IMG/VR virus record: IMGVR_UViG_3300027776_000002
Location: 1 to 64,000 of that record
DNA: 64,000 bases
Reading direction: 5' to 3' (one strand)
From: a virus
Lineage: Duplodnaviria > Caudoviricetes
Shown here in pieces: positions 18,401-19,918 of this stretch (position 1 is its first letter; the number at the start of each line of letters is the position of its first letter). A model generated the notes under the pieces. It did no database searches. It saw only the letters and a program-made list of their open reading frames with translations, and was not told the DNA's origin. Position numbers and translations under genes: made by a program.

Positions 18401-18429
18401 TTGACAAAGTTGCAAAGGCATATTAAGAT
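18401..18429 (+). promoter_or_regulatory. sigma70-type promoter of the ncRNA cluster
   Basis: TTGACA-N17-TAAGAT; predicted +1 near 18436 coincides with the first base of a 20-bp stem. Confidence 0.75.
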
Positions 18430-18435
18430 CGTAAT

Positions 18436-18514
18436 AAGTGTTCAAGAAGCTGCGTATCGGGGCAACATCTTCCCAACAGCTGATAAGATTCAGCACGCAG
18501 CTTCTTGAGCATTT
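18436..18514 (+). ncRNA. Candidate 79-nt three-way-junction RNA directly 5' of tRNA-Pro
   Basis: 20-bp stem (18436-18455/18495-18514, two GU pairs) enclosing hairpins GGGG/TCCC and GCTGA/TCAGC. Confidence 0.6.
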
Positions 18515-18515
18515 T

Positions 18516-18592
18516 CCGTGATTAGCGCAGTCTGGTAGCGCATCTGCTTTGGGAGCAGAGGGTCGTAGGTTCAAATCCTACATCGCGGACCA
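18516..18592 (+). tRNA. tRNA-Pro (anticodon UGG)
   Basis: Acceptor CCGTGAT/ATCGCGG plus ACCA; D arm GCGC/GCGC; anticodon arm TCTGC-TTTGGGA-GCAGA; T arm GTAGG-TTCAAAT-CCTAC. Confidence 0.97.
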
Positions 18593-18595
18593 TTT

Positions 18596-18916
18596 ATGGC
18601 GTGGAACTTACTTACGGTCGGGCCTTACTTCCCATGTGCCAGAGTTCTTAATTCCGAGCAGTTGAGGTTCTCGGACACGTCGCCTAACACAGGCCAGTGT
18701 GAGCAGAGAAGTCTGATAGTTACACTTTCCAAACCCTGCTCGGGATGTGTAATCCCAAACAAAAAAGTCGTCGAAAGTGCGTCGAGGCTCGTTCTCGTGC
18801 CGGTACGATAACCCGGTCCCGAATCCAGATCTGCGCAAGTAGTTAATCAAATCTGATGGGTCTTATGCTTCCTGCTTGCATAGCTAGGCACGCCATCGCC
18901 GGATACAGTAACCGGC
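18596..18916 (+). ncRNA. Candidate ~300-nt structured RNA, family unknown
   Basis: Closing ATGGCGTG/CACGCCAT; internal stems TCCGAG/CTCGGA, GAGCAG/CTGCTC, GGGAT/ATCCC, CAGAT/ATCTG with GCAA tetraloop; trailing GCCGG/CCGGC hairpin. Confidence 0.5.
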
Positions 18917-18935
18917 ACTGAATCTCCACTAACTT

Positions 18936-19035
18936 TCTTTTCATGCGCTGCGTATTGACGAGTAGGTACGTAGGCCATCGACCCAATGGGGCAGTACCGC
19001 GAACGACGAAAGTCAGTGCGCAGCGCATGGAGAGA
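18936..19035 (+). ncRNA. Candidate ~90-100-nt rod-like RNA with asymmetric bubble
   Basis: 17-bp stem 18943-18959/19012-19028, extendable with GU pairs; 5/13-nt bubble; GGTAC/GTACC apical stem. Confidence 0.55.
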
Positions 19036-19053
19036 CGGGAACTGAAAAACACT

Positions 19054-19132
19054 TTCTTAGGTATCCGCCATATTGAACTGGTGTTGCGGACCCAGTTGAT
19101 GAACATCCCGGACATCGATACCAAATTAAGAA
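19054..19132 (+). ncRNA. Candidate 79-nt three-way-junction RNA
   Basis: TTCTTA/TAAGAA plus GGTATC/GATACC closing AACTGG/CCAGTT and GATG/CATC hairpins. Confidence 0.4.
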
Positions 19133-19189
19133 TGCATCTCCATTTAAATATCGGAGCGTATATGTCGTCGTTGGCAGTGAAGTTTCGAT

Positions 19190-19260
19190 AAAGCAATAGC
19201 TGTAATTCGGTCTTAAAATAAGTTGTTTGGACGCGGGTTCGATTCCCGCCAGGTCCACCA
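19190..19260 (+). ncRNA. ssrA: tmRNA acceptor piece of a permuted two-piece ssrA
   Basis: GGAC-GCGGG-TTCGATT-CCCGC-CAGGTCC-A-CCA; helix-2 3' strand AGCTGT...GTTGTTT; 5' boundary approximate. Confidence 0.93.
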
Positions 19261-19425
19261 TGAAACCCTCTCGTGTCGTAAGACTCTAAGGGCGTCGAAC
19301 TGCAAGAAATTGGTCTCTGCATCTTCGGATGGACATATATGAGAGACTGCTCAGTAGAGGCCATGCTTGAGCCTCTGCGTTTACAGCAAGGTGTTTCTGG
19401 CCGCAGTACGAGAGGGTTTCATCAT
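19261..19425 (+). other. Intervening segment of the permuted tmRNA precursor (165 nt, structured)
   Basis: Lies between CCA and G1; closed by a 14-bp perfect stem 19261-19274/19408-19421. Confidence 0.85.
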
Positions 19426-19623
19426 GGGCCTGCAAAGGTTTCGACAGGCAATGGATATAAAGAACGCAGCTGGACAGGCGACTGACCTAATCAGCGCAAA
19501 ACCTTAAACGCGAACGATGATGCGTTTGCTCCACAGCTGCGTCTCGCAGCTTAAAAGAGCATGGGGTAATGGAGAAGCCCTATAACCAAAAAGACCCCGC
19601 GTGGTCCCGGCGACACGGGACAC
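19426..19623 (+). ncRNA. ssrA: tmRNA coding piece; tag reading frame 19510-19554 = ANDDAFAPQLRLAA*
   Basis: 5' GGGCCTG pairs with CAGGTCC giving G3-U70; GGTTTCGAC D-loop; pk1 (AGG/CCT, CTGA/TCAG); TAAAC-GCG-AAC resume context; 3' boundary approximate. Confidence 0.93.
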
Positions 19624-19632
19624 TAATTTCTA

Positions 19633-19712
19633 TGCCATCTAATGCCGAGATTGGAATACGTAAGTAGATCCGAGTGAAAGGACAGGATAGACTGGCCCTG
19701 TTTAGATGACAC
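19633..19712 (+). ncRNA. Candidate ~80-nt three-way-junction RNA
   Basis: CATCTAA/TTAGATG closing stem; GGA-TAC-GTAA-GTA-TCC arm with GNRA loop; ACAGG/CCTGT hairpin. Confidence 0.4.
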
Positions 19713-19728
19713 TTTTCCGGAGAAATCC

Positions 19729-19899
19729 ATGGCAAGAAAAGAAAAAGCTGATGCTATTCAGTGGGCAATCAATCTCGCAGATAGTCAGATGAAACGAGAT
19801 GCTCGAACACCTGAAGAGCGTCATTATATTTACGAGCTGGAAGATCTAAAGAGACGATGCGAAGGTGACGGCTATCGCGCATTCAGTAAACCCACCTAA
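19729..19899 (+). CDS. Small hypothetical protein (56 aa, not in ORF track) at the end of the ncRNA cluster
   Basis: GGAGA RBS; MARKEKADAIQWAINLADSQMKRDARTPEERHYIYELEDLKRRCEGDGYRAFSKPT. Confidence 0.7.
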   Translation: MARKEKADAIQWAINLADSQMKRDARTPEERHYIYELEDLKRRCEGDGYRAFSKPT

Positions 19900-19918
19900 G
19901 CGGTGGGTTTTCTTTTTT
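19888..19918 (+). terminator. Intrinsic terminator closing the ncRNA cluster
   Basis: AAACCCACC-TAAGC-GGTGGGTTT followed by TCTTTTTT. Confidence 0.85.

Follow-up and report, generated by a model that had tools for sequence, protein, structure and literature searches.

On the plus strand of an N4-like phage genome, a tRNA-Pro and a split, permuted tmRNA probably share one polycistronic transcript as a stable-RNA operon, and the segment between the two pieces of the tmRNA holds a conserved structured RNA, referred to below as the passenger RNA. The window analysed was the whole stretch of 64,000 nucleotides (positions 1 to 64,000 of IMG/VR record IMGVR_UViG_3300027776_000002). It is fairly likely that the locus as a whole is best explained by this operon together with a passenger RNA acting in trans, a set of leader or processing stems and a swappable slot. 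All features described below are on the plus strand unless stated otherwise.

The operon, its tRNA-Pro and its permuted tmRNA

A first-pass annotation had described a polycistronic operon carrying a tRNA and a two-piece tmRNA between one promoter and one terminator. The operon was borne out as an ORF-poor region that runs from a sigma-70-like promoter to a strong terminator and lies among early or middle genes. As for the bracketing, the intrinsic terminator (19888–19910) has a 9-bp stem followed by a T-run, and the putative promoter (TTGACA-N17-TAAGAT, 18401–18429) is a consensus match from a scan that overall did not exceed chance (two sites seen, 3.2 expected). The statement that the array lacks an internal terminator needs a qualification, as a weak terminator-like hairpin is present at 19604–19621, at the end of the tmRNA. 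The region was correctly described as having no credible long ORF on the plus strand, and a ribosome-binding site was seen only at a 56-aa ORF (19729–19899; GGAG 7 nt upstream). This ORF was present only in strains of its own phage among 5.8 billion proteins and showed a weak match to phrog_30226. Small ORFs of 71, 59 and 44 aa were rejected as genes. They had no Pfam or PHROG match, and related loci offered no credible relative, the lone tblastn match there covering 19 residues of the 44-aa ORF (E = 0.017). A 173-aa minus-strand ORF (18843–19364), antisense to the tmRNA, was rejected as spurious.

The ORF-poor island begins at 17883 and not at 18401, as had been proposed. Its upstream part (17883–18400), which was not included in the first-pass annotation, is a structured leader region with tandem hairpins and a folding z-score of −2.6 overall (local values of −5.2 and −3.6). 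It contains a T-arm-like hairpin at 18155–18171 (repeat D3) and no credible ORF, and an Rfam search of 17800–18520 at E ≤ 5 returned nothing credible. Across 18300–20000, Rfam 15 at E ≤ 10 gave nothing credible beyond the tRNA and the tmRNA (ribozymes, riboswitches, Y RNA, 6S and GOLLD/ROOL included). Rfam thus assigned these two, and the remaining units matched no described family.

The tRNA-Pro (UGG; 18516–18592) was called by ARAGORN (tgg) and, as had been claimed, confirmed by Rfam (RF00005, 67.5 bits; threshold 29). Its sequence and its alignment to the Rfam model show C1-G72, A73 and an encoded CCA. C1-G72 and A73 are identity elements of bacterial tRNA-Pro.

The two-piece tmRNA was likewise supported, by a permuted call from ARAGORN (19168–19645) and by two Rfam models scoring over their gathering thresholds (RF04321, 139.7 bits, threshold 47; beta_tmRNA RF01850, 104.1 bits, threshold 84). 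The permuted tmRNA spans 19198–19645. Its acceptor piece (19198–19261), delimited with the RF04321 alignment and ARAGORN, comprises the T-arm (GCGGG-UUCGAUU-CCCGC), the 3′ acceptor strand and ACCA. Its coding piece (19425–19645) comprises the 5′ acceptor strand, GGUUUCGAC, the tag ORF and 3′ hairpins. The acceptor stem GGGCCUG/CAGGUCC yields a G3·U pair contributed in part by the coding piece, and the discriminator is A, with ACCA after it. The tag ORF (19510–19554) encodes ANDDAFAPQLRLAA, ending in LAA and followed by the stop codon UAA. Judged from its sequence, the tmRNA has every feature of a working one. No SmpB (PF01668) was encoded in the 74-kb phage genome; host SmpB would serve the phage tmRNA, as with other phage tmRNAs.

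The coding piece aligned with the tmRNA of Yut2, a Menderavirus phage. The same order of acceptor piece, intervening segment and coding piece is found in Yut2 (PV130723, annotated as ssrA) and in the OM43 phage Melnitz (PMC9004378). The tmRNAs of Stenotrophomonas Menderavirus phages share a homologous coding piece, a tag ending in AA and adjoining tRNA genes with the one described here. In contrast, their carriers are myophages rather than an N4-like podophage, and their intervening segment is a hairpin of ~55 nt rather than a conserved, complex RNA of 165 nt. No permuted tmRNA was found in phages Philippe, Pokken and RiverRider or in the phage of contig L003, a viral contig discussed below.

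Transcription from the sigma-70-like promoter would start at approximately 18436, and read-in from upstream is possible. The transcript would carry, in order, a 5′ leader stem, the tRNA-Pro, a variable spacer, a rod-shaped stem, the acceptor piece, the intervening segment and the coding piece. Transcripts of permuted tmRNAs are cleaved by tRNA-processing enzymes (PMC11915505). Host tRNA-maturation enzymes would similarly cut this transcript into pieces, with RNase P presumably cleaving at the 5′ ends of the tRNA-Pro and of the tmRNA coding piece, and an endonuclease and exonucleases presumably trimming 3′ of each CCA. RNase III may cut the perfect stems of 17–19 bp, a guess made from stem length.

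A conserved RNA inside the tmRNA gene

The intervening segment (19262–19424; ~165 nt) had been described as an RNA in its own right, and both compensatory changes and homologues in three contexts agree with this. It has no Rfam match. It consists of a closing stem P1, a GNRA hairpin, a stem P2 (ACUGC/GCAGU) and two covarying inner arms, and it contains an invariant 34-nt junction, UCUAAGGGCGUCGA, and an invariant 3′ motif, AAGGUG-N4-UGGCCGCAGUAC (the 12-nt motif). Its folding z-score was −2.8 (19262–19427). Among sister strains, one SNP changes a U-A pair in helix 4 to C·A. By eye, the invariant junction offers a possible AGUA/GAA loop-E-like pairing.

Homologues were found in the Stenotrophomonas phage Philippe (locus L001, 2988–3166) and in one unrelated 99-kb viral contig (L003, 2219–2428). 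The Philippe copy lies between tRNA-Met and tRNA-Asn, without a tmRNA. Each of the three copies begins 2–6 nt past the 3′ end of a tRNA-like element, and the 13-mer TTGACAAAGTTGC of the promoter at 18401–18429 recurs exactly in a promoter-like site before the L003 RNA. The carrier genomes are far apart (46% versus 58% GC, one weak shared protein), and the 34-nt and 12-nt motifs are identical. Compensatory changes were observed in 31 of 51 pairs across the three homologues, a family size at which covariation rests on few independent events. The alignment was 96.7% paired, compared with 37–46% in slid controls, and none of 500 shuffles reached this value. The pairs of the GNRA hairpin and P2 are invariant, and the covariation comes from the other helices. 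In all, 46 unpaired or junction nucleotides are invariant between unrelated phages while the stems drift. No protein partner was common to all three carrier genomes.

Searches for further relatives returned few matches. Against 50,697 phage records, blastn of the island found matches to the tRNA and the tmRNA plus Philippe only, and blastn of the L003 island against phages found Philippe only. Pattern scans of viral contigs with the 5′ motif and with the 3′ motif each recovered L003 only, and a gapped pattern of the two motifs gave 63 matches in viral contigs, none with P2 pairing. The 5′ motif had three matches in metagenomes, all without the hairpin and the 3′ motif, and none in species genomes. 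The 3′ motif had 20 matches in species genomes, where ~17 would be expected by chance (an estimate), none of them with an upstream 5′ motif or GNRA hairpin. The upstream 190-aa protein led to no relatives.

On this comparative evidence, the intervening segment appears to be a passenger under selection that moves independently and takes its processing signals from the tRNA-like structures on either side. Once excised, it would be a free RNA of 165 nt, held closed by P1, and would act in trans through the invariant junction, its most likely partner being a host component. More tentatively, it may be the founding member of a class, so far undescribed, of phage RNAs acting in trans and moving between phages as self-contained cassettes that borrow neighbouring tRNA or tmRNA ends for their processing, with the junction as a catalytic or host-factor-binding core; the 2–3 kb islands of Xanthomonadaceae N4-like phages would then be arrays of cargo RNAs.

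Cargo in the intervening sequences of permuted tmRNAs has been reported as one tRNA-Ala gene and, in another case, a repetitive element (Nawrocki, Petrov and Williams 2025, PMC11915505). There, as here, an intervening sequence that is supposedly discarded holds a separate structured RNA. The cargo described here differs in that it is not a tRNA, belongs to no described family and is also present outside tmRNA genes.

A purely structural role in cis was weighed against this reading. P1 stacks directly on the acceptor stem of the tmRNA, the two forming one continuous 25-nt helix (22 of 25 positions paired, 88%). The segment could then be a clamp or insulator that joins a 3′ CCA end to the next 5′ end, allowing the tRNA-like domains on either side to be folded and cleaved correctly, with no role after release. 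Every permuted tmRNA has to keep its two ends together, and in related phage tmRNAs the spacer is closed by a stem. However, a plain hairpin of ~55 nt suffices in the Menderavirus tmRNAs, the Philippe copy is flanked by two ordinary tRNAs, for which no clamp is needed, and the 46 nucleotides invariant across unrelated phages represent more constraint than a clamp requires. We therefore consider a role restricted to cis unlikely.

A multi-helix junction with invariant unpaired nucleotides and a variable closing P1 would also suit a riboswitch-like aptamer in which P1 formation gates the maturation of the neighbouring tmRNA or tRNA, and a glutamine riboswitch has been reported inside the ssrA gene of phage Melnitz (PMC9004378). 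This explanation has the slightest probability of those considered: no riboswitch in Rfam matched even at E = 10, no expression platform was recognisable, and P1, at 13–15 bp, is stable and unlike typical switching helices.

Stems, spacers and a swappable slot

Five structured RNAs outside described families had been proposed for the locus. The passenger RNA has comparative support; two of the others (unit A and the rod) are very stable stems only, two gave no signal, and the last, of ~300 nt, is a variable slot. The viral search and covariation check spoke for the passenger RNA (three carriers, compensatory changes as above), and no homologue was found for unit A or for the rod.

Unit A (18437–18513) is a perfect stem of 18–19 bp closing a three-way junction, with a minimum free energy of −40.6 kcal/mol, a z-score of −8.6 and no SNPs in sister strains. 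With its first nucleotide at the predicted +1 and its end 3 nt short of the tRNA-Pro, it would form the 5′ leader of the tRNA. It is likely to be a 5′ protective stem and possibly an RNase III site. The 87-nt rod (18943–19029) has a perfect lower stem of 17 bp and an irregular upper part, a z-score of −5.0 and an identical sequence in sister strains, and is probably a candidate processing element of the RNase III type. For both units, a role as leader or processing stem is the most likely one. RNase III stems bracket or separate the RNAs in polycistronic precursors of rRNA operons and in T7 early transcripts. These are long, near-perfect stems around functional RNAs, and the P1/acceptor helix, unit A and the rod are putative stems of this kind. 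Measured against approximately two helical turns, the duplexes are 18–19 bp (unit A), 17 bp (rod) and 22 of 25 paired positions (P1/acceptor helix, predicted), and stems of 17–19 bp are on the short side for this enzyme.

The second and third of the proposed junction RNAs are ordinary spacer. The former (~19049–19127) falls within the 5′ leader of the tmRNA (19030–19197), for which z-scores of −1.4 (19060–19127) and −1.95 were not significant. The latter corresponds to a spacer with the ribosome-binding site of the small ORF (19646–19728); its z-score was 0.0 (19623–19728), and one sister-strain SNP was located at 19689. A CACUUUY spacer motif was not enriched in the window (29 seen, 25 expected), and short repeats shared by unit A, the rod and the tag region of the tmRNA were attributed to chance.

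The ~300-nt structured RNA could not be upheld. This 317-nt non-coding stretch (18593–18909) had a z-score of −1.2 and no local folding signal. In at least five sequencing runs its place was taken by a protein-gene cassette (889 bp, 62% GC, 210-aa ORF) in strains otherwise 99.7–99.9% identical. A small hairpin at its right edge (GCCGG-loop-CCGGC, 18898–18916; z-score −1.8) keeps its stem in the variant allele, with a different loop. The stretch is a strain-variable, swappable slot and demonstrably dispensable.

These results bear on whether everything but the tRNA-Pro and the tmRNA is unselected spacer, the units reflecting no more than base composition and visual impression. Three units folded no better than shuffles, searches for homologues of unit A, the rod and the 300-nt stretch found none, and all three SNPs within 18910–21000 are non-coding. 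For the intervening segment this is contradicted by the conservation of the passenger RNA with compensatory changes in unrelated phages, and the z-scores of unit A and the rod are far outside their shuffle distributions, which makes the explanation very unlikely. Somewhat less improbable, though still doubtful, is an anti-defence toolkit in which tRNA-sized units serve as decoys or sponges for the nucleases of tRNA- or mRNA-cleaving defences. Phage tRNA and tmRNA can in principle offset damage to translation, as discussed for Melnitz (PMC9004378), and the early or middle position of the island would be compatible. However, ARAGORN and Rfam recognised nothing tRNA-like in the non-tRNA units, and three of the five show no trace of selection. 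One can be dispensed with in sister strains, the conserved RNA has no co-occurring protein, and no repeated sponge-type binding motifs were seen; none of the results singles out such a role. The claim made for the locus is limited in that the stem-closed units picked out by eye are mostly unsupported, and one is dispensable.

Islands of related phages and the T4 tRNA cluster

Although the first-pass annotation knew of no comparable array in N4-like phages, non-coding islands of 2–3 kb punctuated by tRNAs were found in six cultured ones (Philippe, Pokken, Piffle, Paxi, PB119 and RiverRider), all Schitoviridae of Xanthomonadaceae. Their islands occupy the same genomic position, past the dCTP/dCMP-deaminase region and upstream of ThyX, and contain a tRNA-Pro and long non-tRNA intervals, several of which are conserved. 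They differ from the window in having 5–9 tRNAs and no tmRNA, and the passenger RNA is found in Philippe alone. A conserved 3′ RNA of these relatives is absent from the genome of the window, and a hammerhead-like motif seen in Philippe and RiverRider is absent from the window. A search for relatives through ThyX gave seven loci, of which only RiverRider had an island and the closest (L004) had none.

Extra stable RNAs of unexplained purpose have been known in phage tRNA clusters since T4. The passenger RNA resembles T4 RNAC and RNAD (species 1 and 2), non-tRNA RNAs in a phage tRNA unit that are presumably freed by tRNA processing, in its position between tRNA-like elements in the window, Philippe and L003. 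The literature concurs with the first-pass annotation that T4 has these two stable RNAs in its tRNA cluster, and their function is still unknown (PMC9697503). In distant-mode blastn against all phage records, no T4-type match was obtained beyond the tRNA. The RNA described here comes from a different phage family and lies inside a tmRNA gene, and its likeness to RNAC and RNAD does not amount to membership.

The spacers of tmRNAs are usually treated as waste, and the spacer described here holds a strongly selected RNA. Since the passenger RNA is present in Philippe, which is cultured and tractable, the role of passenger RNAs in tRNA operons can be tested at the bench. The cultured N4-like group to which Philippe belongs carries 2–3 kb of unannotated, partly conserved RNA genes.

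The operon and its genomic setting

The viral genome is complete (74,413 bp, with direct terminal repeats), and the window covers its first 64 kb. Its gene content is N4-like. Approximately 88 ORFs were common to this genome, Stenotrophomonas phages Philippe and Pokken and Xanthomonas phage RiverRider, and its DNA polymerase was 55–58% identical to theirs. The RNA island is flanked by a dCTP-deaminase-like gene and a 190-aa gene on one side and by a ThyX gene on the other. The ORF-poor stretch starts at 17883, directly after the 190-aa gene. Its upstream part (17883–18400) was also structured (z = −2.6 overall, local z down to −5.2), with no Rfam match and no homologue found. 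Three tandem hairpins with C/U-rich loops (z = −5.2) immediately follow the 190-aa gene; at 18155–18171, still upstream of the promoter, a T-arm-like hairpin (GUAGG-UUCGUUA-CCUAC) was observed.

The bracketing promoter and terminator of the first-pass annotation were both present (TTGACA-N17-TAAGAT, 18401–18429; terminator, 19888–19910), but promoter-like sites were no commoner in the sequence than in shuffled controls. The promoter 13-mer TTGACAAAGTTGC was identical in the window and in a 99-kb IMG/VR contig (L003). The first-pass annotation saw no internal terminator; however, a weak terminator-like hairpin (19604–19621) closes the tmRNA. The absence of long ORFs held, as the only credible plus-strand ORF encoded 56 aa (GGAG 7 nt upstream) and was known solely from strains of this phage. 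A 173-aa minus-strand ORF (18843–19364) is gene-called in public assemblies of the phage. It runs antisense to some of the intervening segment, to the tmRNA acceptor piece and to the rod, and was rejected as almost certainly spurious.

ARAGORN called both the proposed tRNA-Pro(tgg) (18516–18592) and the two-piece, permuted tmRNA (19168–19645; tag ANDDAFAPQLRLAA*), and the Rfam matches exceeded curated thresholds (tmRNA_permuted 139.7 bits, beta_tmRNA 104.1 bits, tRNA 67.5 bits). Based on the sequence and the Rfam alignment, the tRNA-like domain of the tmRNA was complete, with an acceptor stem GGGCCUG/CAGGUCC containing G3.U, a discriminator A, an encoded CCA, a T-arm and GGUUUCGAC. The permuted tmRNA is probably functional; since the phage has no SmpB gene, host SmpB would be needed. 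In one survey, 53 of 133 unique phage tmRNAs were two-piece (PMC9004378). A permuted tmRNA was also observed in 160-kb Stenotrophomonas myophages (Yut2, Menderavirus; L018 1718–2091, tag VAANDDSYTVRIAA), where that of Yut2 overlaps an annotated tRNA-Leu and tRNA-Thr.

The RNA between the tmRNA pieces

The intervening segment between the acceptor and coding pieces (19262–19424) matched Stenotrophomonas phage Philippe in a blastn search of 50,697 phage records. The Philippe homologue (L001 2988–3166) is flanked by tRNA-Met and tRNA-Asn, and Philippe lacks a permuted tmRNA. A motif scan identified a third copy in the 99-kb contig (L003 2219–2428), downstream of an unusual, insertion-bearing tRNA-like gene of 99 nt (2118–2216). 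This phage has a GC content of 58%, versus 46% in the window's phage, and the two genomes shared only one weak protein match. By eye, the contig contained two more long tRNA-like elements (~2560–2990), with a T-arm and an acceptor stem ending in CCA or ACCAAC; ARAGORN called neither. No further family members emerged when viral, metagenomic and species-genome collections were scanned.

A 34-nt stretch, comprising a GNRA hairpin and the junction UCUAAGGGCGUCGA into ACUGC, and a 12-nt 3' motif (UGGCCGCAGUAC) were identical in all three copies, while the stems had drifted. RNAalifold predicted 51 pairs, 31 of them changed on both sides, versus 2–10 in slid-partner controls. On the predicted structure, 96.7% of cells were paired (37–46% in the controls), and none of 500 shuffles reached the observed pairing values. 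The support was located in the closing stem (P1) and three inner helices; because neither the GNRA hairpin nor P2 varies, covariation does not bear on them. The segment is a well-supported conserved structured RNA.

Remaining units and the exchangeable slot

The first-pass annotation listed five unknown structured RNAs. Rfam searches extended to E = 10 gave no credible match to any of the units. In terms of fold stability (z against dinucleotide shuffles), unit A (18437–18513, z = −8.6) and the rod (18943–19029, z = −5.0) were very stable, followed by the intervening segment (19262–19427, z = −2.8). The ~300-nt unit (18593–18898, z = −1.2) and the second (19060–19127, z = −1.4) and third (19623–19728, z = 0.0) "junction RNAs" are without support. 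A 90-nt sliding fold scan agreed. Homologues were found only for the intervening segment; unit A and the rod likely have a leader or processing role. A genuine stable-RNA operon is present, combining a tRNA and a permuted tmRNA with one new structured RNA that is well supported. The decoy role against defences proposed in the first-pass annotation is a hypothesis.

Near-identical strains were found in other assemblies by exact-protein look-ups. Over 14310–18561, 8–12 SNPs separated them from the window, and unit A was free of SNPs. At least five sequencing runs had 889 bp (62% GC) with a 210-aa ORF in place of 18593–18909. The slot holds either 317 non-coding nt or the 889-bp cassette (L119 57–945) in strains otherwise 99.7–99.9% identical, so the ~300-nt unit is an exchangeable stretch rather than a conserved RNA. 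The left junction is the tRNA-Pro 3' end, which was altered with the slot allele (G72 to C); at the right junction, a small hairpin retained its stem with a different loop. The 210-aa protein family also occurs in unrelated ~45-kb phages, adjoining lysis or recombination genes. Over 18910–21000, the strains had three SNPs, all non-coding: at 19318 (terminal U-A pair of helix 4 to C.A), 19340 (U in the window to C, as in Philippe and L003) and 19689 (last spacer).

Islands of relatives and a possible role of the RNA

The first-pass annotation knew of no comparable array in N4-like phages, but the array is not unique, since Philippe, RiverRider, PB119, Pokken, Piffle and Paxi have ORF-poor islands of 2–3 kb at the same position, each with 5–9 tRNAs and long intervals between them. 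These intervals had no Rfam matches. Several were conserved among the relatives, at times in other positions or order, and one 3' element had an invariant long-range helix with some covariation. Conserved non-tRNA units (72–85% identity; L005 3785–3953 vs L011 2580–2747, L005 3404–3709 vs L012 3094–3319) had different tRNAs as neighbours, or had exchanged their order, from phage to phage, and behave as modular cassettes. The window shares only tRNA-Pro with these islands, plus the intervening-segment RNA with Philippe. A hammerhead-like motif (type-I, by eye; CUGAUGAG, stem II, CGAAAC, stem III, then GUA, closing stem I) opens the islands of Philippe (L001 2410–2480) and RiverRider (L005 2325–2385), and was absent from Pokken, Piffle, Paxi, PB119 and the window. 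Rfam gave a sub-threshold match for RiverRider (25 bits, E = 0.29) and none for Philippe. The genome announcement of Piffle mentions only six tRNAs (PMC9022547), and islands of this kind seem to be undescribed as RNA genes.

P1 runs on into the tmRNA acceptor stem of the window as a 25-nt helix (88% complementary), which would explain release of the RNA from the precursor by tRNA-processing enzymes. Such enzymes cut permuted tmRNA precursors, and one intervening sequence contains a tRNA-Ala (PMC11915505). The tmRNA coding piece of Yut2 aligned well with that of the window and is clearly related, whereas in Yut2 a hairpin of just ~55 nt makes up the intervening segment; a simple clamp therefore suffices for a permuted tmRNA. 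The location between ordinary tRNAs in Philippe and 46 invariant non-stem nucleotides, kept across unrelated phages, suggest that the RNA has a function of its own, with a role in trans favoured. The function of RNAC and RNAD of T4 is still unknown (PMC9697503). Since no protein co-occurred with the intervening-segment RNA in the three carrier genomes, it would likelier act through a host partner or by an RNA-only activity.
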